This document shows positions 2,080-31,804 of a stretch of DNA of 32,000 bases, piece after piece. Each line of letters opens with the position of its first letter. Position 1 is the stretch's first letter. The stretch lies in assembly GCA_000091165.1 (NCBI GenBank), contig FP565575.1, positions 1,050,001 to 1,082,000 on the forward strand, given 5' to 3'. The stretch is from Candidatus Methylomirabilis oxygeniifera. Its GTDB lineage: Bacteria > Methylomirabilota > Methylomirabilia > Methylomirabilales > Methylomirabilaceae. The notes beneath the pieces are model-generated. The model was not told the DNA's origin, made no database searches, and worked only from the letters and a program-made list of their open reading frames with translations. The position numbers and the translations under genes were made by a program.

Positions 2080-2147
2080 TTCTCCTCTCCCACCATAGCA
2101 AACTTCAGCGCAGCCGAGGGGTCACCACGATTCGGCCGCTTGATCGT

Positions 2148-3215
2148 TCAGGTCGCAGAGCCTATTAGAATATCTGGCTCAATCAGAACAAGCGCCTCTT
2201 CTGGCGCGTGCCCATGAAATCGCCCAAAATCAGCTGGACCAAGTATGTTGGCGACTTGTCTTACTATCAGCCCAGCATAAAAGTTAAAAGCGTAAGCGAC
2301 GCATCTTGCCTCAGATTCGCTCATTGATTTGGCAGGCAGCGATGCCGGGGTGAATTTCGCCCCTTTCCCGAGGAGCCTGTCCAAGGTCGCGCGAGCCGGG
2401 GCATGCACCTTCGTCCAAAATGCGATCAACTCTCTGAGTTTTGCCGAATCGATGCCTCGGCCATAATATTGAACTGACAGTTCTATCTCTTGGATGGTCC
2501 TCTTATGCATCACTTGCTGAATCTCGAAGATGTCGTCGGCAGTCCATTCCTCTCGTGCCCTGGAGTCGACCGGCTTGGCGTGGAGTTCTGCCAATGCTTG
2601 CAGATATTCGCGTGTTTCGGGATCCACCTCCGAAGACATGGCCATGCCAGCATTGCAGCTGGATCTTATGACGCTCCAGTCGATAACATCCCACACCTGC
2701 ACAGCGAGTCCTGCAAGGTACAGAGGGAGCCCAAACAGAGCAAGAATCCCTACTGGCACTAGTTCTCCATAAACTCCAAAGAGGAGGGTCATCGCCACGG
2801 CGCCTTTAGCATCCTTCGTTGTGAGTCCAGTCCCGTAAAGAATGCGGTTTGCCAGTTGATGACAGACGCCATTGATCGCATAGACGATTCCAGCCTGTGC
2901 TGGGATCCCCATAAACTTACCTACCTCCCTGCCGCCAATACAGCTCGCCTTGCCTGTGTCGCCCTGTACTTTGCCCAGCTCCCGGGCATTGCTTGGAGGA
3001 GTGTATACTCCATTTTTCCACCGGGCATGGTCACAGTAGTACGAGTCCGGTGGGGTGTCGGCACTTGTAAGGGAGGCCGTCCCAAATCGGCATCCATCAC
3101 AATAGCCTTCTGCTCCTGATTTTCCGTCTCCAGTGACCCAAGTGTGCTCGCCAATGGCCCGGTCGTATATGACATCACCGAGTGGAATAGCCCAAGCATG
3201 CATAGTATCTCCCAT
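2148..3215 (-). CDS. Orphan membrane protein: Cys/His-rich N-terminal domain, central hydrophobic hairpin, helical C-terminal domain
   Basis: The long ORF is trimmed to the internal ATG at 3213-3215, which is preceded by AAGGAGG plus a 6-nt spacer (MGDTMHAWAIPLG...). The region is visibly lower in GC than its flanks. Central segment is AVAMTLLFGVYGELVPVGILALFGLPLYLAGLAVQVW. I recognise no family. Confidence 0.6.
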   Translation of the reverse strand: MGDTMHAWAIPLGDVIYDRAIGEHTWVTGDGKSGAEGYCDGCRFGTASLTSADTPPDSYYCDHARWKNGVYTPPSNARELGKVQGDTGKASCIGGREVGKFMGIPAQAGIVYAINGVCHQLANRILYGTGLTTKDAKGAVAMTLLFGVYGELVPVGILALFGLPLYLAGLAVQVWDVIDWSVIRSSCNAGMAMSSEVDPETREYLQALAELHAKPVDSRAREEWTADDIFEIQQVMHKRTIQEIELSVQYYGRGIDSAKLRELIAFWTKVHAPARATLDRLLGKGAKFTPASLPAKSMSESEARCVAYAFNFYAGLIVRQVANILGPADFGRFHGHAPEEALVLIEPDILIGSAT

Positions 3216-3954: not shown

Positions 3955-4005
3955 CATCTGAGCCGAACGATCACTGCATAGCGAGTGCTGCGAACGGCTC
4001 AGATG
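3955..4005. repeat. 11-bp perfect inverted repeat (CATCTGAGCCG ... CGGCTCAGATG) enclosing 29 nt
   Basis: Read directly: arms at 3955-3965 and 3995-4005. It is non-coding and lies between the transposase-HTH relic and the TA cassettes. It could be a REP/MITE-like hairpin. Confidence 0.6.
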
Positions 4006-4025
4006 GTATCAGACTGGGGGCGGGG

Positions 4026-4062
4026 TTACTGGCCGGCGCGGGCACGATGCCTCAGCGATGTT
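4026..4062 (-). pseudogene. Degenerate third copy of the UPF0182 gene 3' end
   Basis: TTACTGGCCGGCGCGGGCACG compares with CTACTTGCCGGCGCGGGCGCG at 4974 and 5992. The reverse frame reads ...ETSLRHRARAGQ*, against ...ESALKELR(A/T)RAGK* in the other copies. Confidence 0.4.
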
Positions 4063-4274
4063 TCACTACGGGAGGCGCCGGGAGAGGCCATGCGACGGGG
4101 TGCGACATGGCCTGACCGGATCAGGGGACCCAGCGTGAGGCAGGATCAGACGCGACCCCCTTTCATCCCGCTTTTTCCTTGACATCCTCGCGGGGAAGAC
4201 CACAATAACCTTCAACGTTGCCACGTTATAGATGTTGCTTCTGCGGGCGTTCATCTCATGGTGGCCAAAGAACT

Positions 4275-4589
4275 GTGACCATTCAGGACCTCATCGAAGC
4301 GATTCGCCGGCATCGCATACGTATCACAGACCACGCTGATGAGGAGGCGCAGGCCGACCGCTTGTCTTTTGAAGAGACGTTCTACAGCGTATTCCAAGGC
4401 GAGATCATTGAAGAGTATCCTGAAGACAAGCCATACCCGAGCTGTCTGGTCCATGGCGAAAGTTTCAAGGGCGAACCGATTCACAGCGTTTGGGCGTATA
4501 ATAGCACCAACGGGTAGGCGGTCTTGATTACGGTATATCGACCTGCCCCGGAACGATGGATCAACTGGCGTGTCAGGAGAAAGACATGA
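4275..4589 (+). pseudogene. DUF4258-family toxin interrupted by an in-frame TAG (4515-4517)
   Basis: From GTG 4275: MTIQDLIEAIRRHRIRITDHADEEAQ...EYPEDKPYPSCLVHGESFKGEPIHSVWAYNSTNG, then TAG. The same frame continues AVLITVYRPAPERWINWRVRRKT and ends in a TGA that overlaps the downstream ATG (ATGA at 4586-4589). That tail is the conserved DUF4258 C-terminus. The start codon is uncertain (TTG 4218 is also possible). Confidence 0.65.
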
Positions 4590-4828
4590 TGCCGTTCAAC
4601 AAATGCCCGATCTGCGGTGGCGAATTAGTGGAAAAAGACGTGGAAAAGCTGCTCAAAGGTGGCGTACATACTGCGGTATTGCAGGTACGCGCCGAGGTGT
4701 GTTTACGGTGTGGCGAGCGACTGTACTCCGAGGAAACGGTCAGGCGCTTTGAGCAGGTGCGGCGCAAACTCGAGCGACACGACGTCGAAGGGTTTCAACC
4801 ATTGGGTCGATCGTTCCATGTTGCGTAG
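4586..4828 (+). CDS. YgiT-type zinc-finger protein (MqsA-family antitoxin partner of DUF4258)
   Basis: AGGAGA lies before ATGATG. MMPFNKCPICGGELVEKDVEKLLKGGVHTAVLQVRAEVCLRCGERLYSEETV contains two CxxC pairs in the YgiT finger arrangement. Its start overlaps the ancestral toxin stop. Confidence 0.8.
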   Translation: MMPFNKCPICGGELVEKDVEKLLKGGVHTAVLQVRAEVCLRCGERLYSEETVRRFEQVRRKLERHDVEGFQPLGRSFHVA

Positions 4829-4973
4829 GCCGGAGCGAAGTTGTCGAAGCGGTCTGGTCATCGTCATGGCTCTCCGTCCGTCTCACACGCTCTGTTAGCG
4901 CCGTCCTGGCGCCTTCCCCCGCGAAAGCTTGTTCCGCGCGACGAGGTATCCCGTGGCCGGCCGGTCTGCGTGG

Positions 4974-5090
4974 CTACTTGCCGGCGCGGGCGCGCAACTC
5001 CTTCAGCGCCGACTCCAGCCGTTTGACCTCTTCGCTGTAGCCGGCGAAATTGCCCTGTCGAAGCAGCTCCTGCGCCTGCGTGCGGAACAT
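4974..5090 (-). pseudogene. Displaced second copy of the UPF0182 3' end (38 codons plus stop, still an open frame)
   Basis: By eye about 85 percent identical over about 105 nt to 5992-6100, with an identical first 17 nt including the stop. It encodes MFRTQAQELLRQGNFAGYSEEVKRLESALKELRARAGK*. No Shine-Dalgarno sequence is present. Confidence 0.75.
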
Positions 5091-5246
5091 TCACTTGCAA
5101 ACTGAGGGTGGGCACGTGTAGGAGGATCGCGTGCTGCTCCGTACTCCTGGTAGGGCAGTTGGGCGGGCAAAGCGACGCATAAATCCGCTTCGCTGTGACT
5201 TCGCTGCAGTATGCAAGGCAGTACCGCCGCTGAGTGAACTTCGAGA

Positions 5247-5991: not shown

Positions 5992-8709
5992 CTACTTGCC
6001 GGCGCGGGTGCGAAGCTCCTTCAGCGCAGACTCCAGGCGTTTGACTTCATCGCCGTAGCCGGCGAAGTTGCCCTGCCGAAGTAGGTCCTGTGCCCGCGTA
6101 TAATGGTCGTAGGCGCGAGCGGCCAGCGCCTTGAGTGAACTGTCAACCTCTGCGGGTGCCCCCACGGGGGCCCCCGGAATCATGGCCGTGACAGGGCCCC
6201 TCGCCGCGCCGCCAAAGACTCTGGCCAGAGCGCCGTCGAGTGTTTCTTCCATGGCGATCGAGTTCCCATGCGCGACGATGATCCGCTTCAACTCCGGCAG
6301 CGACCCCTTCTCGGCCGCCAGGTAGAGTGGCTGGACATAGAGCAGTGACCGCTCGATCGGGATGGCCAGCATGCTGCCTCGGATCACGGTAGAGCCGCGT
6401 TGGCTCCAGAGCGAGAGCTGCTGCGAGATAAAGGAGTCCTGGTCGATACGGGCGTTGATCTGCCGCGGACCGTAGACCATCTTCGCCTTGGGGAAGTTGA
6501 AGGCGGTCAGCTTCCCGTAGTTCGGCGGGTCGCTGCGGGCTGCGAGCCAGGCGATCATATTGTCTTTCTTGTTCGGTGTGAACGGTAAGAGGAGGATAAA
6601 CTCTTCCTTCGTCTCGTCCGGAAGCCGCATGATGGTATGGTACGGCTCCATCTCGGCAGGAATGCTCCAGAGATCTTCTTTGTTGTAAAACACCTGGGGG
6701 TCCTGCATATGGTAGGTGCTGTAGAGTCTGGCCTGGATGTTGAACATCCCTTGAGGATAGCGAAGATGGCTCTTCAGGTCGTCCGGCATCGCCTCGAGCG
6801 GTTGAAACAGTCCAGGGAATGCCCGGTCGTAGGCCTTGATCACGGGATCTGTCTGATCGGCGATGTAGAAGCTGAGGCTCCCGTTGTAGGCGTCTACCAC
6901 CACCTTGACCGAGTTGCGAATATAGTTGCCCACGCCGCGGATCGGTTCGGAATACGGGTACATATCCGAGATGGTGTAGGCGTCGATGATCCAAAACAGA
7001 CGGCCGTCCTTGGCGATAACCATATACGCGTCCCGATCGAAGCTTAAAAAGGGCGCCGCCTTCTGGACTCGCTCGGAGATCTGTCGGTGATACATGATCC
7101 TGCTGTCCAACGTCAGGTCTTGTGAGAGGAGGATCTTGAGCGTCCCGAAGCGGGTGGCGAACAGGAGTTTTCGTCCGAGGGTCGTGAGCGGCACACCCCC
7201 GTCGCCGGTATACGTGCTGTAGACGTTTTTATCGCCTGAGGGGTAATCCAACTCCTGGGCTTGCGTCTTGACGATGACGTAGTCGTTAGCGACCTCGCTG
7301 TAGTAGATCTCCGGACGCGTGACCTTGATCGGCGTGGTGGAGACCGGCGGGATGTCCTTGATCAGGAACTCCGGTAGCCCCTCCGGAGTAACCCGGTTGA
7401 CGGGTCCGAGGACGACCCCGTAGCCGTGGGTAAAGATCAGGTGTTCATTGATCCAACTTCGACCCGGCAGATGTTGCTGCGACATCTCTCTGGCCGAGAT
7501 CATGACCTGCCGGTACTCGCCGTCGATCTGGTACCGGTCGTTGTCCACGTCCATAAACTTATAGTAGGTCCGGATCTCCTGGAGCTGGCCGTACGTCGTG
7601 AGCAACGGACGATGATCCCAGAGACGGATATTTTTGATCGTCAGATCGTTGCGTCGCAGGTCTTCGCGGGTCAGGGTTTCCTCGGCCGGAAACTCTCGCT
7701 CATCGATCCGGTCGAGTCCATAGGCCTGCCGGGTGAAATGAATGTTGTGGGTGATGTAGGGACTTTCGGCCACGATCTCATTCGGAACGACGCGGAAGCG
7801 CTGGATAAAACTCGGATAGAGACCCAGACCGATGAGGCTGGCAAGAACCAACATGCCGATGCCGACCAGGACCAATCGCCAGCCGCGCTGGAAGATTTGG
7901 GCCAGGCAGAGGAGGGCGACAAAAATGGCCAGGATCGTCAGAAAATTGAGGGCCGGGAGGCTGGCGTTGATGTCGCTATAGCTGGCGCCGAAGACCATTC
8001 CGCTGGGGGAGTAGAGGAGCTGGTAGGTGTCGAGTCGGTAGCCAACGGCCTTAATCACGAACAGCAATGCGCCGAGCACAAGCAGGTGTGTCCTCGCCAG
8101 GCGCGCAATAATCGGCCCGCGGTTCGTGATCTGTATGCCCCTGAAGAGAACGTAGGTCATAGCGGTCACGAAGAGGATCAGGATGACTGAGCTGATCAGC
8201 CAACCATACAGGAAGTTGAGGAAGGGCAGCTTGAAGACATAGAACCCGACATCCTGCCGAAAGATCGGGTCCTCAATATCAAAAGGTAATGCGTTGGCAA
8301 AGCGGATGTAACGTTCCCATGCGGCGGCCGCCCGGAATGCCGAGAAGACCCCGAGTCCGAGAACGCCGGGGATCAAGAGGCGGCGGAAGTACGGTTCGAT
8401 GATAAAACGGCTGGGAAGTCCGAACCTGTCCTCGACCTCGAGGAGGACATCGGTGGCGGTCAATCGACTGGCCATGTACAGGTTCACGTACAGCAGGACC
8501 GCGAAGGTCAGGCCGAACGCGACAGCCAGCGTCAGTTGCGTCCTGAGCATCGTGACGAAGACGTTGGTCAGTCTCACCTCCTGAAACCAAAGCCAGTCTG
8601 AGTAGAGGGGGACCGTCTGGCTTCCAAGCACAAGGACGACCAGCAGGATCAGGACGTAGGCGATCTGCCTGCCCTTCAGTTCACCAGCGCTTCCATTGTA
8701 TTGCGCCAT
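5992..8709 (-). CDS. UPF0182 family membrane protein (COG1615)
   Basis: 905 aa. It has about 7 N-terminal TM helices and a large extracytoplasmic domain with ...MYHRQISERVQKAAPFLSFDRDAYMVIAKDGRLFWIIDAYTISDMYPYSEP..., which I recognise as UPF0182. GGGAG lies before the ATG. Confidence 0.9.
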   Translation of the reverse strand: MAQYNGSAGELKGRQIAYVLILLVVLVLGSQTVPLYSDWLWFQEVRLTNVFVTMLRTQLTLAVAFGLTFAVLLYVNLYMASRLTATDVLLEVEDRFGLPSRFIIEPYFRRLLIPGVLGLGVFSAFRAAAAWERYIRFANALPFDIEDPIFRQDVGFYVFKLPFLNFLYGWLISSVILILFVTAMTYVLFRGIQITNRGPIIARLARTHLLVLGALLFVIKAVGYRLDTYQLLYSPSGMVFGASYSDINASLPALNFLTILAIFVALLCLAQIFQRGWRLVLVGIGMLVLASLIGLGLYPSFIQRFRVVPNEIVAESPYITHNIHFTRQAYGLDRIDEREFPAEETLTREDLRRNDLTIKNIRLWDHRPLLTTYGQLQEIRTYYKFMDVDNDRYQIDGEYRQVMISAREMSQQHLPGRSWINEHLIFTHGYGVVLGPVNRVTPEGLPEFLIKDIPPVSTTPIKVTRPEIYYSEVANDYVIVKTQAQELDYPSGDKNVYSTYTGDGGVPLTTLGRKLLFATRFGTLKILLSQDLTLDSRIMYHRQISERVQKAAPFLSFDRDAYMVIAKDGRLFWIIDAYTISDMYPYSEPIRGVGNYIRNSVKVVVDAYNGSLSFYIADQTDPVIKAYDRAFPGLFQPLEAMPDDLKSHLRYPQGMFNIQARLYSTYHMQDPQVFYNKEDLWSIPAEMEPYHTIMRLPDETKEEFILLLPFTPNKKDNMIAWLAARSDPPNYGKLTAFNFPKAKMVYGPRQINARIDQDSFISQQLSLWSQRGSTVIRGSMLAIPIERSLLYVQPLYLAAEKGSLPELKRIIVAHGNSIAMEETLDGALARVFGGAARGPVTAMIPGAPVGAPAEVDSSLKALAARAYDHYTRAQDLLRQGNFAGYGDEVKRLESALKELRTRAGK

Positions 8710-15534: not shown

Positions 15535-16137
15535 ATGAAAGAACGCCTGAGCGCCGAAGAGCGGCGGCGGCAGATTGTCGAGGCGGCGGTGGGGCTGTTC
15601 TCGCGGAAGGGATTCAGGGGGACCAGGACGCGCGAGATCGCTGAGGCTGCCGGCATCAGCGAGGCGATGATCTACAGGCATTTCGCGACGAAGCGTGAAC
15701 TGTACTTCGCGATTATCGAGACGAAATCCGCAACGGAGGAGCTGCTGGCGAGCGCAGCGACAGCCGCGAAAGGGAAAGATGATGCGGGCGTCCTTCGGGC
15801 GGTAGGCCTGAAGATGATCGAGCAGACGGAAGCTGACCCGAGCCTCATGCGGCTCCTGCTGTTCAGCGCCCTTGAAGGACATGAACTGTCCCAGATCTTC
15901 TTCGACTCGCGAGTCAAAAGACTGCATCAGTTTCTCAGCCGGTACATTCGTGGCCGGATCAAGGAAGGGCGATTCCGGTCGATGGATGCGCTGGTCGCGG
16001 CCCGCGGGTTCATCGGGATGATTGTCCATTATTTATTGATCCACGAGCTGTTCGGGATAAAACGCCCTCTCCGGTCCTCGCCGGAACAGGTCGTAGAGCT
16101 TTTCGTATCCGTCTTTCTGAAAGGGATCGAGCGATGA
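15535..16137 (+). CDS. TetR/AcrR family transcriptional regulator
   Basis: AGAGGAG lies before the ATG. The N-terminal HTH is RRRQIVEAAVGLFSRKGFRGTRTREIAEAAGISEAMIYRHFATKRELY. Its stop overlaps the next gene's start (ATGA). A small palindrome GTAAG-TG-CTTAC at 15432-15443 upstream is a possible operator. Confidence 0.9.
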   Translation: MKERLSAEERRRQIVEAAVGLFSRKGFRGTRTREIAEAAGISEAMIYRHFATKRELYFAIIETKSATEELLASAATAAKGKDDAGVLRAVGLKMIEQTEADPSLMRLLLFSALEGHELSQIFFDSRVKRLHQFLSRYIRGRIKEGRFRSMDALVAARGFIGMIVHYLLIHELFGIKRPLRSSPEQVVELFVSVFLKGIER

Positions 16138-17357
16138 GATGCCGGTTCGTGGCTCGAAGTTGTGGGCTCCTACTGCTTCTACTGCCGCCCCTCTTGGGCT
16201 GTTCCCGGGAGCAGGCTGCCAACGGCGCCCCGGCCGTGGCGAAGGAGCAGAGCCTCGCGATTACCGTGACCCCCGTCGAGGCGAGGACTGTGATACGACG
16301 CGTAGAGGTCGTCGGCACCCTCGAAGCGGACGAGGAGGTGATGGTCTACGGCCAGGTATCAGGGTCTGTGGAGAGAATCCTGGTTGACCTGGGGGACCGG
16401 GTAAGGGCAGGGCAGCCGCTGCTTCAACTCGACCAGGCGGACTTGCAGTTGCAGGTCGGAAAGGCCGAGGCGATTCTCCGTCAAACGCGAACGAGGCTCG
16501 GCGCGATGAATGGTGGAGATATGCTACCTGACGATCAGCAGCCGGTGGTTCGTCAGGCCAAGGCCAACTCTGATGACGCTGCCCTGTGGTATGAGCGGAT
16601 GCGGAGCCTGTATAAGGAAGGTGCTGTCTCCCGGAACGATCTGGATACCGCCCTGGCGAAGTCTCAAGCCTTGCAGGCGGCGCTTGATAGCGCCATGAGT
16701 CAGGTCAGGGCGCTTGCCGATCAACTCAGGGAGCAGCAGGCCGCGTTGGACCTCGCTCGTCGGAACCTCCAGTATACGGTAATCCGGGCTCCTATCGATG
16801 GCTCGATCAAAGAACGAAACGTTTCCGCGGGTCAGTACATTGCCGGCGGCAGCATGCAGAATACTAAGCTGTTGACCCTCGTCCGTGACGATCCTTTGAA
16901 GCTGAAAGCGTCGGTGCCGGAGCGGTTCCAGGGACAGATCCGGCCGGGCCAGGAGGTAAAGGTCCAGGTCGAGGCCTATCCGGGCCGCGAATTCAGCGGG
17001 ACAGCGAAGCGAGTTGGCCCGGCTGTTTTTACCGACACTCGGACGTTTCCGATTGAGGCACGAGTGCCTAACCGTGAGGGGTTGTTGAAGCCGGGCTCCT
17101 TCGCCAAGGTGCGGATCCAGATCCGGGTTGACCGCGCCATTCCCTTTGTTCCGGAGGATGCCGTCTATTATTTTGTGGGAATCACCAAGGCGTTCGTGGT
17201 TACGGACGGTGTCGCCCAAGAGCGACAGATCACGGTCGGCGAGCGCCAGGATGGGCTGGTTGAGATCGTTGAGGGACTTCAACCGGGGGAGCAGGTAGCC
17301 ACCTCGCGCTTGAGTCAACTGTTCGGCGGCGCCACAGTTCAGGTGATGGCGAAATAA
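16134..17357 (+). CDS. RND efflux periplasmic adaptor (membrane fusion protein), lipoprotein
   Basis: Lipobox LLGC after a hydrophobic signal. It has coiled-coil, lipoyl and beta-barrel architecture (RAPIDGSIKERNVSAGQYI) and sits in an operon with an RND pump. Confidence 0.9.
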   Translation: MRCRFVARSCGLLLLLLPPLLGCSREQAANGAPAVAKEQSLAITVTPVEARTVIRRVEVVGTLEADEEVMVYGQVSGSVERILVDLGDRVRAGQPLLQLDQADLQLQVGKAEAILRQTRTRLGAMNGGDMLPDDQQPVVRQAKANSDDAALWYERMRSLYKEGAVSRNDLDTALAKSQALQAALDSAMSQVRALADQLREQQAALDLARRNLQYTVIRAPIDGSIKERNVSAGQYIAGGSMQNTKLLTLVRDDPLKLKASVPERFQGQIRPGQEVKVQVEAYPGREFSGTAKRVGPAVFTDTRTFPIEARVPNREGLLKPGSFAKVRIQIRVDRAIPFVPEDAVYYFVGITKAFVVTDGVAQERQITVGERQDGLVEIVEGLQPGEQVATSRLSQLFGGATVQVMAK

Positions 17358-17359
17358 CC

Positions 17360-20300
17360 ATGTCCCTGATTGATATCTGCGTCAAACGGCCGGTCTTTGC
17401 CACGATGCTGATCGTCTCCCTTGTTGTCATGGGGCTGGTGTCATTCAGGGAGTTGGGACTCGATGTCTTCCCCAAGGTAGATATGCCCACCGTGACTATC
17501 ACGACGAGGCTCCCAGGGGCCAGTCCGGAGGAGATCGAGAGCAATATCACGAAGCGGATTGAGGAAGCCGTGAACACGATCAACGGGATCGATGAACTCC
17601 GGTCCACCACTCTCGAAGGGCAGTCGCAGGTCTTCGTGACGTTTGTCCTGGAGCGTAAGATCGACGAGGCGGCCAACGATGTCCGGGAAAAGGTGGCGAC
17701 GGTTGTCTCGGAGTTCCCGCAGGGCACCGAGGCCCCGGCTATCGAGAAGTTCGACCCCGACTCGGCTCCGATTCTGGCGATTGTTGTCTCCGGCAAGCGC
17801 TCGGCCCGCGAGATTACGGAGCTTGCCGACAAGAAGATCAAGCGGCAACTCGAAACCGTCAAGGATATCGGAGCGGTCACGCTTGTCGGCGACCGGAAGC
17901 GAGAGATCCAGCTTGTCGTGGATCCCCATCGCCTCGAGGCCTATAACCTCTCGATCCAACAGATCAAGACGGCTGTCCAGCGTCAGAACGTTGAGGTCCC
18001 CGGAGGCAACATCACCTGGCAGGCGCGGGAGCAGGGGCTCCGAACGCTGGGCCGAATCGAGCGGGCTGCCGACTTCAGCGATCTCATCGTTGCCGATTAC
18101 AAGGGCGCCCCCGTCCGGATTCGAGACATCGGCTCCGCGCTGGACGGCGAAGAGGAACCTCGAACTCTCTCCCGTCTTGACGGCAAGAGCGCTGTTTCCC
18201 TCCTGGTCCAGAAGCAGTCCGGGACCAATACCGTAGCTGTGGTCGATCTGGTCAAGGCGAAGCTGCAAGAGATTCAAGCGACCCTGCCGCCTGATGTGGA
18301 GTTCCAGGTGGTGCGCGACGTGTCGCGGTTCATCAAGCGCTCGATTGCGGAAGTGGAAGAGCACCTGATGCTGGGCGGGCTGCTGGCCAGCCTGATCGTA
18401 GCCTTCTTCATCGGACGCCTCGTGCGGCGAGAGCAGATCGTCATGGGGATATTGCTTGGAGGCCTTACTCTGGCGTTCTTCTATGGCGATCCGGAGCTAT
18501 TGCGCGTCGTCGTGGTCGGGTCGATTGCTGTGACCCTGGTCCTCTTCCTCTTCATCCCGCGCCTTCGGCCCGCCTTCATCGCCGCGATCTCGATCCCCGT
18601 CTCGATCATTGCCACGTTTACCATCATGCGGGTGGCGGGCTTTACTCTGAACAATCTTACGATGCTGGGCCTTTCGCTTTCTACCGGGATCGTCATCGAC
18701 GATGCCATCATTGTGTTGGAAAATATCTTCCGCCACATCGAGGAGGAAGGGCGCCCTCCGATGGAGGCGGCGGTGACCGGTGCGAAGGAGATTGTCCTGG
18801 CTGTTATGGCTACCACTATCTCGCTGGTAGTCATCTTTCTTCCTGTCGCCTTCATGGGGGGGCTCGTGGGACGGTTCTGGAACAGCTTTGGTCTGACGGC
18901 CACCTTCGCTATCCTCGTTTCGCTGCTGGTGGCGTTCACCCTGACCCCGATGCTCTCCGCCCGGATGCTGAAGCGTGTGGTGAACTCGGTCGAACCATCG
19001 AAGGAACTCGGCGAAGGCCATGGCGGACATCGACAGCACGATCAGGGATCTAAGGCGGCGCGCGTCTATGCCTTTCTGGAGCGCAACTACGACCGGCTCC
19101 TTGTCTGGTGTCTGAACCACCGGGCGGCCGTCCTGCTGTTGGCTGTCTTACTGATGTGTTCTACTGTGCTGATCGGTAGGCAGATGAAACCGGATTTTGT
19201 TGTTGATGACGACATGAGCGAATTCGAGGTGATCGTCGAGACCCCGTCCGGCTCCTCACTCGACCGCAGCGACGGGATCCTGCGACGGCTGGAGGCCGAT
19301 CTGAAGAGCATCCCTGAGGTGCAACACTTGTTTACCACCATCGGGGTTCGAGGCAAGGACCGGGCCAATATCACCGACGCCTCGATTTATGTCGGGCTTG
19401 CGCACTTGCGCGAACGAAGACGGTCGCAGGAGGCGATCATGCAAGAGGTCCGACAGATGTTCAGGGCCTATCCGGACCTAAGAATCAGTGCGCAACAGAT
19501 CGGGCTGATCTCAGGCGGCGGCTTCAAGCAGACCCCATTCAACCTCGTACTTCGCGGCCCGGACCTGCAGCAGCTCGACGGCTACGCCCAGGCTCTCATT
19601 AAGCGCCTGACCGCAGTCCCTGGATTCGTAGACGTAGACACCAGCCAGGCCCAGCGGCGGCCTGAGGTGCAGGTCTGGATCGATCGGCAGAAGGCGTCGG
19701 ACCTGGAGATCAGGGCGGAGGATGTTGCGCTTGCGCTCCGGACGATGGTGGGTGGAGAGAAGGTCGGTTTCTACCGGGAGGCAGGTGAGCAGTACGACGT
19801 CCGCCTGCGGCTCGAGGACGACTACCGGAAAGATGCATCCGTCATCTCGGCTTTGACGGTGCCGACCGCTGCCAACCGGCTGGTGAAGCTGAACAATGTC
19901 GTACATCTGAATCAAGGACGGGCGCCGGCGCAGATCGATCGCTATGCCCAGGAGCGACAGATCACGGTTCAAGCGAATCTCTACCAGATACCGCTGGGAG
20001 AGGCGACCGCCCAGGCCGATGAGGCCATCAAAGCGGTCGGGATGCCTTCCGGCTATTCGACCGCGTACCTTGGGCGGGGTAAGTTGATGGCGGAGGCATT
20101 TTACAACTTTGCCATTGCCTTTGTCCTCTCCATCGCGTTCATCTACATCGTCCTCGCAGCCCAGTTTGAGAGTTTCGTTCACCCGATCACCATCATGGTC
20201 TCGATGTTCCTGTCGATTCCCTTCGGGCTGGTGAGCCTCCTGATCGCGGGCCAGACGCTGAATATTTATAGCGTCATGGGCCTCTTTCTCCTGATGGGGG

Positions 20301-20662
20301 TAGTGAAGAAAAACGCTATCCTCCAGGTAGATTACACCAATGTATTGCGCGCGCGCGGCAAGGCGCGCGACGAGGCGCAACTGGAGGCTGACCGTGCGCG
20401 ACTACGGCCGATCCTCATGACGACGCTCGCGATTATTGCCGGGATGCTGCCGGTTGCGTTAGGGAAGGGGGATGGCGCCGCCTCCAGGGCTTCCCTTGCA
20501 ACGGCCGTCGTCGGCGGGCAGACCCTCTGCCTCCTGATCACGCTGCTGGTGACCCCGGTCATCTACTCGTACTTCGACGATCTCCGCGGACTCCGGGTCG
20601 TCTCGCGGCTGTATGAGTGTCGCGTGTGGGCGCGGCTGCGGGGAGTTGAAGACAGGGTCTAG
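17360..20662 (+). CDS. RND family efflux permease (AcrB/HAE-type)
   Basis: 1100 aa, 12-TM and two-large-loop architecture. The N-terminus is MSLIDICVKRPVFATMLIVSLVVMGLVSF, followed by DDAIIVLENIFRH. No outer-membrane factor gene follows. Confidence 0.95.
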   Translation: MSLIDICVKRPVFATMLIVSLVVMGLVSFRELGLDVFPKVDMPTVTITTRLPGASPEEIESNITKRIEEAVNTINGIDELRSTTLEGQSQVFVTFVLERKIDEAANDVREKVATVVSEFPQGTEAPAIEKFDPDSAPILAIVVSGKRSAREITELADKKIKRQLETVKDIGAVTLVGDRKREIQLVVDPHRLEAYNLSIQQIKTAVQRQNVEVPGGNITWQAREQGLRTLGRIERAADFSDLIVADYKGAPVRIRDIGSALDGEEEPRTLSRLDGKSAVSLLVQKQSGTNTVAVVDLVKAKLQEIQATLPPDVEFQVVRDVSRFIKRSIAEVEEHLMLGGLLASLIVAFFIGRLVRREQIVMGILLGGLTLAFFYGDPELLRVVVVGSIAVTLVLFLFIPRLRPAFIAAISIPVSIIATFTIMRVAGFTLNNLTMLGLSLSTGIVIDDAIIVLENIFRHIEEEGRPPMEAAVTGAKEIVLAVMATTISLVVIFLPVAFMGGLVGRFWNSFGLTATFAILVSLLVAFTLTPMLSARMLKRVVNSVEPSKELGEGHGGHRQHDQGSKAARVYAFLERNYDRLLVWCLNHRAAVLLLAVLLMCSTVLIGRQMKPDFVVDDDMSEFEVIVETPSGSSLDRSDGILRRLEADLKSIPEVQHLFTTIGVRGKDRANITDASIYVGLAHLRERRRSQEAIMQEVRQMFRAYPDLRISAQQIGLISGGGFKQTPFNLVLRGPDLQQLDGYAQALIKRLTAVPGFVDVDTSQAQRRPEVQVWIDRQKASDLEIRAEDVALALRTMVGGEKVGFYREAGEQYDVRLRLEDDYRKDASVISALTVPTAANRLVKLNNVVHLNQGRAPAQIDRYAQERQITVQANLYQIPLGEATAQADEAIKAVGMPSGYSTAYLGRGKLMAEAFYNFAIAFVLSIAFIYIVLAAQFESFVHPITIMVSMFLSIPFGLVSLLIAGQTLNIYSVMGLFLLMGVVKKNAILQVDYTNVLRARGKARDEAQLEADRARLRPILMTTLAIIAGMLPVALGKGDGAASRASLATAVVGGQTLCLLITLLVTPVIYSYFDDLRGLRVVSRLYECRVWARLRGVEDRV

Positions 20663-26559: not shown

Positions 26560-26646
26560 AAGTTCGGTTCCGAATGTGACGCCTGCTTCAGTAAACCCAT
26601 CAACCCCTCGATGTTGATTGACGTCGTCGTCCGCTTGATTTCTTGA
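26560..26646 (+). pseudogene. Relic of a receiver-domain C-terminus
   Basis: A frame ending in TGA (26644-26646) reads KFGSECDACFSKPINPSMLIDVVVRLIS*, the alpha4-beta5-alpha5 end of a receiver (xDxxxxKPI). It has no start codon and no preceding receiver sequence. Confidence 0.4.
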
Positions 26647-26664
26647 CGCTACCTACCTTATAAT
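26635..26664 (+). promoter_or_regulatory. Candidate sigma70 promoter for the zinc-ribbon/thioredoxin/cytochrome gene string
   Basis: TTGATT, an 18-nt spacer, then TATAAT, about 88 nt upstream of the ATG at 26752. Confidence 0.3.
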
Positions 26665-26751: not shown

Positions 26752-26916
26752 ATGCCCAGCTATGATTTGAAGTGTGTAAACTGCGGCAAGAAATTTTCAC
26801 TGACCATGACTATTAAGGAGCGGGGGACCAAGCGGCTGAAATGCCCGAAATGCGGAGCCGGCAAACCGGAGCCCATCTTCTCGACCTTTTTCGCCAAAAC
26901 CTCGCGTAAGAGCTGA
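26752..26916 (+). CDS. FmdB-family CxxC...CxxC zinc-ribbon protein (54 aa, below the ORF-track cutoff)
   Basis: GAAGGGGGAAG lies before the ATG. The product is MPSYDLKCVNCGKKFSLTMTIKERGTKRLKCPKCGAGKPEPIFSTFFAKTSRKS*. Confidence 0.75.
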   Translation: MPSYDLKCVNCGKKFSLTMTIKERGTKRLKCPKCGAGKPEPIFSTFFAKTSRKS

Positions 26917-26965: not shown

Positions 26966-27571
26966 GTGACGAGCAACCGACAGAATCTGAAGCAATGCGC
27001 CAGGGGATTGACCGCACTGGCGCTCGGATGTATCCTGCTCGCCTCCCCGACGAGCGTCCTCAGCGCAGGCCGAGAAACCCTCCACCTGGATAGTGAGTTG
27101 GAGTCTCTTGGATTTATCAAGCTCCAGAACGATCCCAAGGCGCCCGACTTTACGCTCCAGGACGTGTCGGGAAAGTCGGTTCGGCTGGCTGACCATCGCG
27201 GTAAAATTGTCTTCCTGACCTTCTGGACAACCTGGTGAGGCTACTGCCTGAGGGAGTTTCCCTCAATCGAGCGTCTCTATCAACAGTTTAAGAAGAAAGA
27301 TTTCATCGTGCTGGCGGTCAATATCGGCGAGTCGGCCGATCGGATCCAACAATATATGCTGAAGCATAAGCTCACCTTTCCCTCGCTGGTGGACCCCTCG
27401 TCAAGCGTCGCCAACCTGTACGGGGTTCGCGCGACGCCTACCCGGTATCTGATTAATCGCGACGGGACGGCTATGGCAGGGAGCATCGGGCCAAGGGACT
27501 GGGCGGGTGAAGATGCGCAGAGGCTGATCGAAATTCTTTTGGAGACCGGCAAAGCGCTCCGTAAGGGATAA
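26966..27571 (+). CDS. TlpA/ResA/CcmG-like thiol:disulfide oxidoreductase with in-frame TGA (27236-27238) at the first redox Cys position; candidate selenoprotein (UxxC)
   Basis: ORFs 26918-27238 and 27308-27571 are in the same frame. Readthrough gives ...APDFTLQDVSGKSVRLADHRGKIVFLTFWTTW-U-GYCLREFPSIERLYQQFKKKDFIVLAVNIGE...YGVRATPTRYLINRDG. A signal peptide is present (LTALALGCILLASPTSVLSA). The start is uncertain: GTG at 26966 follows GAGGAG, and 26918 or 26951 are also possible. Confidence 0.7.
27249..27265 (+). promoter_or_regulatory. SECIS-like hairpin downstream of the in-frame TGA
   Basis: TGAGGGA-GTT-TCCCTCA is a 7-bp perfect stem starting 10 nt after the TGA, with G-U in the apical loop. 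This is the position and shape expected of a bacterial SECIS. Confidence 0.5.
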
Positions 27572-27653: not shown

Positions 27654-28979
27654 ATGAAGCGGCTGTTCCTGTGTGTCGCTATAATAAGCGTATGTTTTGG
27701 GCTTTCCGCCGGCGTATCGGCGATGGGCGACCAACCGCCGGTTGCCGATGACCGCATCCAACGCGAGTTTCTCACGAACCATTGGCAGACGCCTATCCCG
27801 CCTCAAGGGAAGCCTCCGGCACATTTTTCGTCGATCGAGGGATCGCTTGACCCGGAAAGTTGCGGCGTCTGTCATCGGGCTCCGTATGAGGACTGGGGCA
27901 ACAGCCTTCATAGTAAGAGCATGGGACCGGGCGTTGTGGGCCAGACGATGGAGCTGATCCACGACAATCCCAAGATGGCGCTCCTGTGCTACAGTTGTCA
28001 TGCGCCTCTTACCGAGCAGCAGGAGAAGGTCGTGAAACAAAAAGGCGGCACCCCCTCTCGAGTGAAGAAGCGGCACCGCCCGTCGGCCTTGCCGTTGAAC
28101 GCTTCAGAAGATGGGGAGAGTGATGAGTTGACATTCAAAACCAATCACGCCTTTTCCGCCTCGCTGCAACAAAAGGGCTTGAGTTGCACCGGATGCCACG
28201 TGCGGAGGCACCAGCGTTTCGGGCCGCCAAAGCGGGACGGCTCGATCGAGAATTCCGCTTCCGCAGCGCAGGTCCCGCACGGCGACGCCATCAGAACGAC
28301 GGCCTTTGAACGAGCCGAATTCTGTAAAGGCTGCCACCAGTTCGAGCCGAACGGGTATGCCTTGAACGGCAAGCTGCTCGAAAATACCTATAACGAATGG
28401 AGAGAGGGGCCGTATGCGCGGGAAGGGAAAAGCTGCCAGAGCTGCCATATGCCGGAGCGTCGGCACCTGTGGCGAGGGATCCATGATCCAGAGATGGTGA
28501 AGCAAGGCGTATCCGTGCGCCTTGCACTGGACAAGGAGCGCTATCAGGTCGGCGAGCAACTTCGCGCTGGGATCACGCTGGTCAATACCGGGGTTGGTCA
28601 TGATTTCCCGACCTACGTGACGCCGAAGATCATCGTCCGATTTGAGTTGACAGACGCGGACGGCAAGCAGATAGGTAAGAGTGCGCAAGAGGAACGGATC
28701 GGACGGGAGGTTACACTTGATCTGACGCAAGAGATCTTTGACACCAGGATTGCGCCGGGTAAAAGCCGTACTGTCCGCTATGTCAGAGCGATCGATCGAA
28801 CAGGACTCACGTTGCGCGCGTCCGTTATCGTTGTACCTGATGATTTCTACATCCAGTTTTTCGAAGCGACCGCGCCGAAGGCTAAAGGGAAGGAGGCCCG
28901 GGCGCTGCTTGAGCAGGCTGCCCGTGAGGGACGGGCGCGATCCTTTCTACTGTTTACGGAGAACGTGGTAGTGTCGTAA
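27654..28979 (+). CDS. Secreted pentaheme c-type cytochrome (cytochrome c554-like multiheme family) with a non-heme C-terminal domain
   Basis: It has a signal peptide and five CxxCH motifs: CGVCH, CYSCH, CTGCH, CKGCH, CQSCH. The contexts CGVCHRAPYEDWGNSLHS and NTYNEW...CQSCHMP are typical of multiheme families. Confidence 0.85.
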   Translation: MKRLFLCVAIISVCFGLSAGVSAMGDQPPVADDRIQREFLTNHWQTPIPPQGKPPAHFSSIEGSLDPESCGVCHRAPYEDWGNSLHSKSMGPGVVGQTMELIHDNPKMALLCYSCHAPLTEQQEKVVKQKGGTPSRVKKRHRPSALPLNASEDGESDELTFKTNHAFSASLQQKGLSCTGCHVRRHQRFGPPKRDGSIENSASAAQVPHGDAIRTTAFERAEFCKGCHQFEPNGYALNGKLLENTYNEWREGPYAREGKSCQSCHMPERRHLWRGIHDPEMVKQGVSVRLALDKERYQVGEQLRAGITLVNTGVGHDFPTYVTPKIIVRFELTDADGKQIGKSAQEERIGREVTLDLTQEIFDTRIAPGKSRTVRYVRAIDRTGLTLRASVIVVPDDFYIQFFEATAPKAKGKEARALLEQAAREGRARSFLLFTENVVVS

Positions 28980-29029: not shown

Positions 29030-30544
29030 GTGGTGAAAGTTCTGTTGGTGCACCCAAGTTCCTTGATGTACGCTGAGATCTTCCTTCGGCTGGAGCCGCT
29101 GGGATTGGAGCGGGTGGCTCAGGCCGCCAGAATGGCCGGCCACGAGGTCAGGCTCTTCGACCTGCAGGTCTTTCGCCGTGAAGACTACCTGCAGGAACTC
29201 CAAGATTTCCGCCCTCAGACCGTCGGGTTGTCCCTGAATTTTTTAGCCAATCTTCCGGAGGTAGTAGAACTCGCCAAGGAGACCAAGCGCCTCCTGCCCG
29301 CGTGCTTTGTGTTCGTTGGGGGCCATAGCGCCTCCTTTATCCCGCAGGAGTTGCTCGATCATGCCGAAGGTGCGATCGACTGCATCGTCCGTGGGGAAGG
29401 AGAGCCGATTACGCCGCCGTTGCTCGAAGCCATCCAGGATGGAGGGCTCGAAACGCTCCCAGGGGTCGTAACCGCTCGCGGTGTCGGGCCTCCGCCGCTG
29501 ATGCTCCACGACCTGGATCGCACACTGCCGGCCAGGGACCTTGCCCGCCGCCGACATAAATACTTCATTGGTGTCCTGGATCCCTGCGCGTCGATTGAGT
29601 TTACGCGCGGCTGCCCTTGGGACTGTTCGTTTTGCAGCGCATGGACCTTCTACGGTCGAAGCTACCGCAAGGTCTCTCCCGAGGTCGTGGGGGAGGACCT
29701 GGCCAGGATTCAAGAACCTAACGCCTTCATCGTGGACGATGTAGCCTTCATCCATCCGGAGGACGGGATGGCGATCGGCCGGGAGATCGAGCGTCGAGGG
29801 ATTCGCAAGCAGTACTACCTGGAGACCCGATGTGATGTGTTGCTCCGCAATCAAGAGGTCTTCGCCTACTGGAAACGACTCGGGCTTCGGTATATGTTTC
29901 TCGGCCTGGAGGCCCTCGACGCGGAAGGCCTGAAGGCGATTCGGAAGCGGGCCACGCCCAGCGAGAATTTTCAGGCCCTGGAGGTGGCGCGGAAGCTGGG
30001 ATTCACGGTGGCCCTCAACATCATCGCCGATTCCGGCTGGGACGAGGAGCGGTTCCGGGTCATTCGCGAGTGGGCCGCCGGTGTCCCCGAGATCGTCCAC
30101 GTGACCGTAAACACCCCGTACCCCGGGACGGAGACCTGGTACACGGAGTCGAGGAAGCTGACCTCGCTCGACTACCGATTGTTCGACGTCCAGCATGCCG
30201 TCCTGCCGACGACGCTGCCGTTGAAGCGGTTTTATGAAGAGCTGGTTAAGACCCAGGCGGTGTTGAATCGAAAGCACCTGGGCTGGGCCGCGGTCAGAGG
30301 GACCTTCTCCACCGCGTCCAGGTTACTCATGCAGGGTCAGACGAACTTCGTTCGGATGCTCTGGAAGTTCTCGCAGGTGTACAATCCGGACCGGCAGTAC
30401 GGCGATCACTTGAAAGAGGTGAAATATGTCTTGACGCCGCCGCCGGACAAACAGCCGATCAAGCCGACGCCGGCCAAGCTGTTCGTTCATGCGCAAGCGT
30501 CGGTTGGACCGCGAGCGGCGCACGCCGAGGGGTCTGCCGGGTGA
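29030..30544 (+). CDS. B12-binding-domain radical SAM enzyme (class B); resembles hopanoid C-3 methylase HpnR
   Basis: GGAGGAGCG lies before GTGGTG. The N-terminal cobalamin-binding domain is VLLVHPSSLMYAEIFLRLEPLGLERVAQAARMAGHEVRLFDLQ. The radical SAM motif is FTRGCPWDCSFCSAW (CxxxCxxC). The HpnR assignment rests on my memory of the N-terminal signature only. Confidence 0.8.
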   Translation: MVKVLLVHPSSLMYAEIFLRLEPLGLERVAQAARMAGHEVRLFDLQVFRREDYLQELQDFRPQTVGLSLNFLANLPEVVELAKETKRLLPACFVFVGGHSASFIPQELLDHAEGAIDCIVRGEGEPITPPLLEAIQDGGLETLPGVVTARGVGPPPLMLHDLDRTLPARDLARRRHKYFIGVLDPCASIEFTRGCPWDCSFCSAWTFYGRSYRKVSPEVVGEDLARIQEPNAFIVDDVAFIHPEDGMAIGREIERRGIRKQYYLETRCDVLLRNQEVFAYWKRLGLRYMFLGLEALDAEGLKAIRKRATPSENFQALEVARKLGFTVALNIIADSGWDEERFRVIREWAAGVPEIVHVTVNTPYPGTETWYTESRKLTSLDYRLFDVQHAVLPTTLPLKRFYEELVKTQAVLNRKHLGWAAVRGTFSTASRLLMQGQTNFVRMLWKFSQVYNPDRQYGDHLKEVKYVLTPPPDKQPIKPTPAKLFVHAQASVGPRAAHAEGSAG

Positions 30545-30592: not shown

Positions 30593-31804
30593 GTGAAAAG
30601 GCAATTCATCGCGTTTGCGGTCGTGACGCTGCTGGCCGCAGGGCTGGCGTTGGCTTCCGAATGGTACATGAGCCACGATCACTGGTACGCCAAGGAACCG
30701 GAAAAGGACTTCGCCCTGGCGAGGCTCATCGCCGACATTCGGGCGGCCACATCGCGGTACCAGGATCTGGAGCAGGCCAAGGCGGATGGGTATACGCAGA
30801 TATCGGGGAATGTGCCGTTAGAGGGCTACCATTTTCGCAAGGCGGCTATCACGCAATTTGACTATTTTCATCCTTCCACGCTCCTCTATACCGAAAGGGA
30901 GGGGCGCTGGCAACTGGTTGCGCTGAAATATACAGCCCCAGGTGCCCGTCCCGCCGAGAGCCCGTTTCAGGGAATCGAGTGGGAACGGAGTCTGGCGATC
31001 TGCCGCTATGCGGACGGGCAGGAGTCTCGATCGCCCTCCGCTGAAAGCTGCCCTCAGGTTCATCCTGACAGTAAAAGCGCATTTACTGCCTGGTATCCGG
31101 ATACGTGGGTGATCCGTCTCTGGATCTGGTATCCGAATCCGTACGGATTATTCGCAAGCATGAACCCTCTTCTGGCGCCGTTCGATGATCACACCATCCC
31201 GCCGGACGAAGCCGGAAGCTGGGAGACATGGCAAGCGCATACGGAGTTCTCGAACTTTAACCATCACTTCTCAGGATGGCTGGTACTCGTCATGGGGATG
31301 GCGATGACAGGCTCGGCCCTGTGGGGAGGTCAGAAGTCCAAGTATGCGCATCTCTGGCCGCTGATGACGCTGGGCGTCGCGTTATTCATCCTGTATCGGA
31401 GCGATCCGGAGTATTGGCCGTTTGGCCCGCGGACGCTGACCGAACTCCTGGGTGACCGGGAGGCTATCGAGCATAAGCTGTCGGGTGTCATCGTCCTTGC
31501 TATGGGATCCGTAGAATGGCTGCGGGCGCGCGGAATATTCAGCCATTGGCTGTGGGGCATGATCTTTCCATGGCTGGCCATCATGGGGGGAGTGACCCTG
31601 TTGTTCCATCTCCATCCCATCAGTAACTTCAACTACGTCGGGCGAGCCAATTCGCCCCACACAACCGAGGGGATCACCGCGATCCTGGCCGGCATGACGT
31701 ACCTCCTCGGATCGTTGGGGATCATGAAACAACGTTGGTGGGGGTTGGTTCCGGCGCTCTTTGTCATCCTGATGGGCGTGCAGCTTATCGTCTACGTCGA
31801 GTAG
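30593..31804 (+). CDS. Membrane protein: secreted N-terminal domain plus six-helix C-terminal domain with a threefold H-x3-G-x6-G repeat
   Basis: AGGAGG plus 8 nt lies before the GTG. It has a signal peptide (VVTLLAAGLALASE). The C-terminal TM helices start with NHHFSGWLVLVMG, EHKLSGVIVLAMG and PHTTEGITAILAG. I recognise no family. Confidence 0.7.
   Translation: MKRQFIAFAVVTLLAAGLALASEWYMSHDHWYAKEPEKDFALARLIADIRAATSRYQDLEQAKADGYTQISGNVPLEGYHFRKAAITQFDYFHPSTLLYTEREGRWQLVALKYTAPGARPAESPFQGIEWERSLAICRYADGQESRSPSAESCPQVHPDSKSAFTAWYPDTWVIRLWIWYPNPYGLFASMNPLLAPFDDHTIPPDEAGSWETWQAHTEFSNFNHHFSGWLVLVMGMAMTGSALWGGQKSKYAHLWPLMTLGVALFILYRSDPEYWPFGPRTLTELLGDREAIEHKLSGVIVLAMGSVEWLRARGIFSHWLWGMIFPWLAIMGGVTLLFHLHPISNFNYVGRANSPHTTEGITAILAGMTYLLGSLGIMKQRWWGLVPALFVILMGVQLIVYVE

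Follow-up and report, generated by a model that had tools for sequence, protein, structure and literature searches.

In a 32,000-nt stretch of the Candidatus Methylomirabilis oxyfera genome (contig FP565575.1, positions 1,050,001 to 1,082,000; hereafter the window), an in-frame TGA codon at 27236-27238 divides a gene for a thioredoxin-fold protein, which lies directly upstream of a gene for a pentaheme cytochrome. Our analysis indicates that this codon very probably encodes selenocysteine (Sec), which would make the divided gene a genuine ResA/TlpA-type UxxC selenoprotein gene of M. oxyfera. The decisive support for this reading is comparative. The full explanation that we favor, in which Sec decoding, the nature of the product and its coupling to the cytochrome are taken together, is likewise judged highly probable. 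The positions of the features discussed below are collected in Table 1.

The TGA is the single internal stop of the frame from 26966 to 27571, as had been recognized in an initial annotation of this DNA, which described two open reading frames (ORFs) in the same frame that are parted by this codon alone. Public gene calls break the gene into two such ORFs, of 90-95 and 87-107 amino acids (aa). The GTG start is preceded by GAGGAG/GGAGGA, and the start position is common to the orthologues. The peptide reads ...GKIVFLTFWTTW up to the stop and GYCLREFPSIER... beyond it. When Cys was substituted for the stop, the joined product matched the Pfam families AhpC-TSA (1.5e-29), Redoxin (2.3e-23), Thioredoxin_8 and Thioredoxin, and passed the cut-offs of the first three. 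The window contains 53 sites at which two ORFs of at least 45 codons each could be joined across a TGA, and a redox motif was found at 27236-27238 only; none of the other 52 sites had a redox motif or domain support. TGA is also the ordinary stop of 5 of the 16 window genes, including the gene directly upstream of the selenoprotein gene, and a global reassignment of TGA in the genetic code was therefore rejected.

The closest characterized relative of the joined product is ResA of Bacillus subtilis. ResA is an extracytoplasmic thiol-disulfide oxidoreductase of cytochrome c maturation, where it acts as apocytochrome c disulfide reductase, and the first Cys of its active-site motif is the attacking residue. 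The Sec codon aligns with this Cys, and the stretches W-U-G-Y-C-L-R-E-F-P and ...T-P-T-R-Y-L-I of the window protein align with ResA without gaps. We take the conserved Glu three positions after the motif (in E-F-P) to be the counterpart of ResA Glu80, and the P-T before the last strand to contain the cis-Pro. The initial annotation had described the joined product as a complete secreted protein of the TlpA/ResA/CcmG type. The Pfam and ResA matches bear this out for the fold and family, and secretion was judged by eye: the N-terminus has a basic n-region and a hydrophobic segment, LTALALGCILLA, followed by ...VLSA before a Gly. These features resemble those of an export signal or membrane anchor, and the orthologues keep the type of this N-terminus but not its sequence.

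To evaluate whether the TGA is conserved, we compared the gene with its relatives. The gene recurs letter for letter, with all of its 606 nt and the TGA, in four independent M. oxyfera assemblies (GCA_009026205.1; ENA contig Methylomirabilis_oxyfera_contig_34; Logan SRR023516; Logan ERR13927253), so that the TGA is not an error; gene calls on the contigs of these assemblies again gave two ORFs. Two truncated relatives that end exactly at ...FWTTW and ...FWATW were retrieved in a protein search, and the contigs that encode them keep the TGA and the same downstream hairpin. In scans of species-representative genomes and metagenomes, TGA was found at the identical codon in 36 loci, representing 27 distinct 42-nt segments, with identities to the window protein from 90% down to about 38%. 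In every locus with enough sequence (33 of 33), the frame stays open for 103-110 codons past the TGA and ends at the same point. The median pairwise ratio of nonsynonymous to synonymous substitution (dN/dS) was 0.21 over the 55 codons that precede the TGA and 0.24 over those that follow, which indicates purifying selection. The latter value, together with the kept downstream frame, shows that the downstream half is translated and that selection acts on its protein product.

In 93 Cys-type homologues, the TGA column is occupied by TGC or TGT, which confirms the predicted exchange of Sec and Cys in this column and the placement of the TGA at the first Cys of the W-C-x-x-C motif. The closest Cys-type genes, in loci L083 (protein P0001) and L101, both encode W-C-P-Y-C and nest within the Sec clade beside the W-U-P-Y-C genes of L004 and L005 in a neighbor-joining tree without support values. 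Both also retain a 6-bp hairpin remnant, CAGAGGGAGTTTCCCTCA (L083:2039 and L101:6271). Nesting within the Sec clade and the hairpin remnant together give the usual picture of a recent replacement of Sec by Cys, and this is what the two genes look like. A different kind of change was seen in L090 (about 6200-6360) and L092, two independent contigs in which ~150 nt of stop-bearing DNA have been inserted into the region of the Sec gene that encodes the N-terminus. The inserted DNA has GC-rich palindromic ends (...CCCCGCGGCTTGCCGCGGGG...), is flanked by a duplicated ...LEALGFI... coding stretch and resembles a miniature mobile element.

The initial annotation had also placed a perfect 7-bp hairpin 10 nt past the TGA, at the location expected of a bacterial selenocysteine insertion sequence (bSECIS), and the hairpin was found exactly there. 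Positions 27249-27255 (TGAGGGA) pair perfectly with 27259-27265 (TCCCTCA) around the loop 27256-27258 (GTT). All positions and descriptions given in that annotation held up. Published bSECIS criteria call for a loop of 3-9 nt, a stem of 4-16 bp, a G in the first two loop positions, a distance from UGA to loop of 16-37 nt and a minimum free energy of at most -7.5 kcal/mol (PMC13188914). The hairpin lies within all of these limits, with a 3-nt loop (GUU), a 7-bp stem, G as the first loop nucleotide, a loop start 17 nt from the TGA and a fold energy of -10.2 kcal/mol for the hairpin alone. Judged from this sequence alone, the hairpin is only weakly unusual. Perfect 7-bp hairpins whose first two loop positions include a G are rare, the plus strand of the 32-kb window having 11, and only 8 of 578 TGA triplets are followed by one at SECIS spacing.

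Comparison of the 27 distinct Sec sequences showed that 94.7% of stem cells are paired in the alignment; shifting the 3' partner by 1-3 columns lowers this figure to 47-72%. At the outermost position, 18 sequences have U-A, 4 have G-C, 2 have G-U and 3 are unpaired, and at the fourth position 24 have G-C and 3 have A-U, so that two stem pairs show compensatory changes (UA to GC and GC to AU). The loop G-U-U is invariant, and RNAalifold yields the same helix of 6-7 bp. The codons of L-R-E-F-P-S do not vary at their third positions, whereas neighboring codons vary synonymously (TGC/TGT, CGT/CGC/CGG, TAT/TAC, CAA/CAG). The segment from +10 to +36 folds at -9.8 kcal/mol on average among the 27 Sec genes, compared to -3.5 kcal/mol in the 93 Cys-type genes (Mann-Whitney p = 2e-14), and the Cys-type homologues lack the hairpin, with the exception of the revertants L083 and L101. 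Scoring against a bSECIS model and the compensatory changes thus bear out the earlier suggestion, and from these comparisons we identify 27249-27265 as the predicted SECIS of the gene. An outer stem in the minimum free energy fold (GAGGC with GUCUC) was rejected, since its pairing is disrupted in orthologues with U-S-Y-C or U-P-x-C. A search of the window with Rfam at gathering thresholds gave no match, to which we give no weight because we identified no Rfam family for bacterial SECIS elements of coding regions.

Table S2 of Peng et al. (PMC5029168), which covers "all Sec-utilizing organisms", has an entry for M. oxyfera with 6 selenoproteins; the Sec trait was defined in that study via SelD, SelA and SelB. 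Together with the TGA in 36 loci and the selected downstream frame, this listing supports the proposal that a UxxC selenoprotein gene has here been split by ORF calling. A 2026 review mentions a metagenome-assembled genome (MAG) of the Methylomirabilota with 63 predicted selenoprotein genes. We found no gene-level description or list of the six M. oxyfera selenoproteins in the literature on Methylomirabilis and selenocysteine or selenoproteins, and the deep-Sep supplementary sequence sets contained no FWTTWU, TWUGYC, TWUPHC or similar peptide. In the window, ARAGORN detected no tRNA, and Pfam searches detected no sel genes among the other large ORFs. Among the homologue loci, a tRNA-Sec gene turned up in L006 only (6990-7088), where it lies ~550 nt downstream of a Cys-type homologue (W-C-G-Y-C) in an unclassified, unrelated MAG; its neighbors, none of them a sel gene, encode a pyridine-nucleotide-disulfide oxidoreductase and an LTXXQ protein of heavy-metal resistance.

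The selenoprotein gene is separated by 82 nt from the cytochrome gene. Of the 36 Sec loci, 28 have a cytochrome gene directly downstream, and a further cytochrome gene stands beside the Cys-type gene of L101. Among the remaining 8 Sec loci, 5 are on contigs that end within about 720 nt of the TGA, and 3 (L001, L119 and L125) have room for a cytochrome gene and lack it. All ten Cys residues of the mature window cytochrome lie within its five CXXCH motifs, and its gene has no in-frame TGA. The best NCBIfam match of the cytochrome was the ExtKL (seleno)protein model NF040886 (7e-18), with 64 bits, below the cut-off of 250. Among 2,390 cytochrome homologues are two proteins in which a TlpA-like domain is fused to the cytochrome, P0127 (578 aa) and P0144 (Rokubacteria annotation, partial). 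P0127 (L169:8001-9737, GCA_040961615.1) consists of a signal peptide, a TlpA-like domain with W-C-P-A-C that is 42% identical to the window protein, an Ala/Pro linker and a cytochrome part that is 54% identical to that of the window.

Other members of the cytochrome family, 50-55% identical to the window cytochrome, are encoded near selD, candidate UxxC genes or mer-type genes. In L170-172, a cytochrome homologue lies ~2 kb from selD and beside a gene for an SO_0444/SaoE-like permease with an in-frame TGA. In L172, selD (TIGR00476, 316 bits) and the permease gene are just upstream of a cytochrome homologue of 53% identity (P0145 cluster, Rokubacteria annotation), and the permease TGA, in the context ...SMM-U-TCC..., is followed by a hairpin of -19 kcal/mol. 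L173:3131-3964 (TGA 3656) and L176:3247-4041 (TGA 3733) contain a PrdB/GrdB-like ORF with an in-frame TGA (...LLAPA-U-PVC...), a stable downstream hairpin and no obvious signal peptide, which scored 179 bits with TIGR04483, under its cut-off. This ORF ends 37 nt before a cytochrome homologue in L173 and overlaps the called cytochrome start in L176; these two homologues are 50-51% identical to the window cytochrome. In L179 and L180, cytochrome homologues are encoded beside MerR, MerT-HMA and MerA-like pyridine-nucleotide-disulfide oxidoreductase genes, with CusF, CopZ-like, CMD/AhpD-like, cytochrome P460 and redoxin genes nearby. The neighbors of the gene for P0127 encode an HMA P-type ATPase, an ArsP_1 permease, MerR, a CDF transporter, NicO, TauE and a rhodanese. 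The occurrence of selD, and of candidate UxxC selenoprotein genes, beside members of the cytochrome family may point to a link of this family to selenium acquisition.

Several points weigh against the interpretation that we favor. The assignment of Sec to residue 91 is a prediction from the comparison of sequences, and the Sec machinery of M. oxyfera is taken from the published table (PMC5029168). The 65-nt single-sequence fold is not more stable than that of shuffled sequences (z = -0.6). Conservation of the hairpin is partly confounded by that of the peptide L-R-E-F-P-S, and its compensatory changes are found in a small number of lineages (L112 and the group of L119/121/125), probably representing three events. 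The window protein scored 116.8 with the NCBIfam ResA model NF002854 (cut-off 170) and 81.6 with the TlpA model NF047696 (cut-off 230), so that function is not transferable by equivalog rules; its score with the DsbE model TIGR00385 was 37.8 (cut-off 123). Finally, fusion of a TlpA-like domain to the cytochrome is known from one lineage only.

With these points in mind, we considered what else the TGA might be. That it is a true stop, due to a sequencing or assembly error, in a decaying pseudogene or between two small proteins, would agree with the two ORFs of the public callers, with the unremarkable z-score and with the insertion in L090 and L092, where the gene appears to be losable in some strains. 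Such a stop is nevertheless scarcely credible, because the sequence is identical in the four independent assemblies, TGA is kept in 36 loci though flanking synonymous sites vary, and no further lesions are present; the length of the downstream frame is kept in 33 loci, with a dN/dS that equals the upstream value, and neither half alone would form a thioredoxin fold, since the N-terminal piece stops right before the active site. Sequencing error and pseudogene decay, which the initial annotation had raised as ways in which its proposal could fail, are set aside by the identical assemblies, the intact frame and the dN/dS of ~0.2 on both sides; a lack of the Sec machinery, its remaining condition, is at odds with the published listing of M. 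oxyfera. The UGA could also be read through by a near-cognate Trp or Cys tRNA or with the help of another recoding signal, with the hairpin only stimulating read-through, and the indirect basis of the Sec assignment leaves some room for this view. We consider it very improbable, given that the codon falls exactly at the redox-active Cys column, that the hairpin fits the SelB-type bSECIS consensus including the G-U of the loop, that the organism is listed with SelA, SelB and SelD, and that the Cys-type genes nested in the Sec clade follow the usual pattern of exchange between Sec and Cys.

A separate issue is what the selenoprotein does for the cytochrome. The initial annotation had suggested that the cytochrome is a substrate, kept reduced for heme attachment. 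The link between the two is real, as shown by synteny and fusion, and the maturation role is only partly supported, since the fusion and the kinship of the cytochrome to the selenoenzyme MccSep (compared below) are no less compatible with a lasting redox partnership. A dedicated ResA-like maturation factor would reduce the CXXCH motifs of the neighboring apocytochrome before heme attachment and have no later role. This would agree with ResA as the closest characterized relative, with synteny in 28 of 36 Sec loci and with the confinement of the cytochrome's Cys residues to the heme motifs, which means that thiols are on offer in the apo-form only. However, in P0127 and P0144 the thioredoxin domain is permanently tethered to the cytochrome, the heme motifs are all canonical CXXCH with no visible need for special maturation, cytochrome homologues of other genomes lack an adjoining TlpA-like gene, and the advantage of Sec in such a role is not evident; we therefore regard this role as rather unlikely. 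We give slightly more weight to a standing redox pair, in which the hemes would exchange electrons with the U-x-x-C center, although this too is a tentative proposal. Its support comes from the permanent fusion, from the canonical heme motifs, from the kinship to MccSep, whose Sec and additional Cys are missing from the window cytochrome, and from the selenium- and metal-related surroundings in which members of the cytochrome family recur.

Based on established SelB/SECIS biology, the Sec reading would work as follows. SelB with Sec-tRNA(Sec) would bind the 17-nt hairpin while the ribosome sits with the UGA in its A site, and Sec would be inserted. The 201-residue product would then be exported as a ResA/TlpA-type thioredoxin-fold oxidoreductase with Sec as its attacking residue. 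By analogy with ResA and TlpA, the selenolate of residue 91 would attack a disulfide or another electrophilic sulfur, selenium or metal(loid) center in the periplasm, and Cys94 would resolve the adduct to a selenenylsulfide, which would be re-reduced. Synteny and fusion indicate that the selenoprotein works as a unit with the cytochrome encoded downstream.

The gene is thus mis-annotated, appearing as two meaningless ORFs in the public calls of a model nitrite-dependent methane oxidizer. Once restored, it would add a U-x-x-C member of the ResA/TlpA type, which no curated model captures, to the catalogue of bacterial selenoproteins, and it offers a testable lead to a thioredoxin-fold protein with a multiheme cytochrome as its redox partner. 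Such a partnership, if true, would be a new way to power thiol and selenol chemistry in the periplasm.

Table 1. Features of the selenoprotein locus (window coordinates) and of the comparison locus L172 (coordinates of that locus).
Feature	Position	Strand	Description
Promoter-like site	26635..26664	+	TTGATT-18-TATAAT ahead of the zinc-ribbon gene; consensus match only, weak
FmdB-family zinc-ribbon gene	26752..26916	+	54 aa; CxxC...CxxC; Pfam Zn_ribbon_8, TIGR02605
ResA/TlpA-like selenoprotein gene (predicted)	26966..27571	+	201 residues; GTG start at 26966, TAA at 27569-27571
Putative N-terminal export signal/membrane anchor	26966..27067	+	Residues 1-34; read by eye from the sequence
In-frame TGA, predicted Sec codon	27236..27238	+	Residue 91; attacking position of the W-U-G-Y-C active site
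TGC, predicted resolving Cys of U-x-x-C	27245..27247	+	Residue 94; Cys invariant in all Sec and Cys homologues
Bacterial SECIS core (predicted)	27249..27265	+	7-bp stem, GUU apical loop
Pentaheme c-type cytochrome gene	27654..28979	+	441 aa, periplasmic; distant MccSep/ExtKL homologue
L172, selD	894-1886		
L172, SO_0444/SaoE-like permease gene	2025-3092		TGA at 2406
L172, cytochrome homologue gene	4001-5233		

The zinc-ribbon gene also lies upstream of the target gene in L001-L005, L085-L091, L101, L103, L104 and L108. The FmdB family (TIGR02605) is listed in the 2026 review among the families with UxxU selenoprotein forms; the window copy is a Cys form. The plus strand shows no terminator-like site up to the end of the cytochrome gene, and this fits, on weak evidence, a single transcription unit from the zinc-ribbon gene through the cytochrome gene. 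The cytochrome gene is followed by a gene for the hopanoid C-3 methylase HpnR (29030-30544; TIGR04367, 890 bits), beyond which a conserved membrane protein of 403 aa, of unknown family, is encoded (30593-31804). The loci L088-L092 lack hpnR at this place, and the membrane protein gene directly follows that of the cytochrome. Elsewhere in the window, 16134-20662 encodes a membrane-fusion protein with a CusB/HlyD-type barrel-sandwich domain and an AcrB-family resistance-nodulation-division (RND) pump. Beyond them come a TonB-dependent receptor, a YfiR-like protein and a histidine kinase/response regulator pair, for which L090 and L091 show synteny with the selenoprotein locus.

Among known systems, the predicted selenoprotein is closest to ResA of B. 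subtilis (PDB 1st9, 3c71 and others), with 40% identity over 112 residues without gaps (BLASTP 6e-34, phmmer 2e-27). The stretch F-W-x-T-W-[C/U]-x-x-C-x-x-E-F-P is found in both proteins, and T-P-T of the window protein aligns with L-P-T of ResA. Both are exported, putatively so in the case of the window protein, and both are tied to a c-type cytochrome. In contrast to ResA, the window protein would have Sec in place of the attacking Cys, it has a C-terminal extension with a conserved GPRDW, and its gene adjoins one particular pentaheme cytochrome gene rather than resBC/ccdA. Bradyrhizobium TlpA (PDB 1jfu, 4txo) resembles the window protein in family, fold, membrane-anchored or periplasmic location and W-C-x-x-C motif (E = 1e-18), but is more distant than ResA, acts on the copper proteins ScoI and CoxB and is without Sec.

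Selenoproteins with a similar active site have been cataloged. The "Prx-like thiol:disulfide oxidoreductase" family (PF00578; WP_010940744.1 of Geobacter sulfurreducens) belongs to the same Pfam family and has U-x-x-C at the same position. We compared two of its members, taken as representatives from deep-Sep Table S1. They were 25-26% identical to the window protein (E = 9e-9 to 2e-14), with a 29-residue insertion in one of the two alignments. They also have an unaligned N-terminal stretch of ~50-60 residues, the motif F-Y-R-G-x-W-U-P-Y-C and, by eye, no signal peptide. Membership in this Geobacter family was rejected on the basis of the low identity and the different architecture, the Cys-type ResA being closer. 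The families NF041054 (WAxxUGC) and NF053656 (TUGYCR) and the "UGC-containing TlpA family" of the 2026 review also have TlpA/ResA-like folds with Sec in the active site, and NF053656 has the tetrapeptide U-G-Y-C in common with the window protein. NF041054 differs in its spacing, U-G-C instead of U-x-x-C, and the window protein scored far under both curated cut-offs (61.9 against 300 for NF041054; 21.8 against 100 for NF053656). Judged by these alignments, the window protein is a thioredoxin-fold UxxC selenoprotein of a well-known kind, in a ResA/TlpA-like lineage that the curated catalogues examined have missed.

The window cytochrome, in turn, has its best PDB match in MccSep/ExtKL (GSU2937-2936; PDB 9wt8/9wt9; E = 1e-4). 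Both are periplasmic proteins of ~440-450 residues, with five CXXCH motifs in an N-terminal heme domain and a C-terminal non-heme region, which was described as immunoglobulin-like in MccSep (PMC13510729). MccSep is a pentaheme selenoenzyme whose U325, located beside a His/Cys-ligated heme, reduces polysulfide and selenite, so that Sec next to heme performs S-S and Se-O reduction (PMC13510729). The window cytochrome lacks these catalytic residues, since it has no Cys outside its five CXXCH motifs and hence no counterparts of U325 and the heme-ligating C239. Whereas MccSep has its own Sec, the only Sec here would be on a separate thioredoxin-like protein, which is fused to the cytochrome in relatives. 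It is conceivable, though we consider it doubtful, that the selenoprotein and the cytochrome are a two-component counterpart of MccSep, fused in some relatives, in which the cytochrome would feed respiratory electrons to the U-x-x-C center and the catalytic selenol would be supplied in trans. The window cytochrome may then have lost, or never had, the Sec and heme-ligating Cys of MccSep. If this version is true, the pair would constitute a heme-driven periplasmic seleno-thiol reductase for polysulfide, selenite, peroxide or metal(loid), not fed by CcdA/DsbD.

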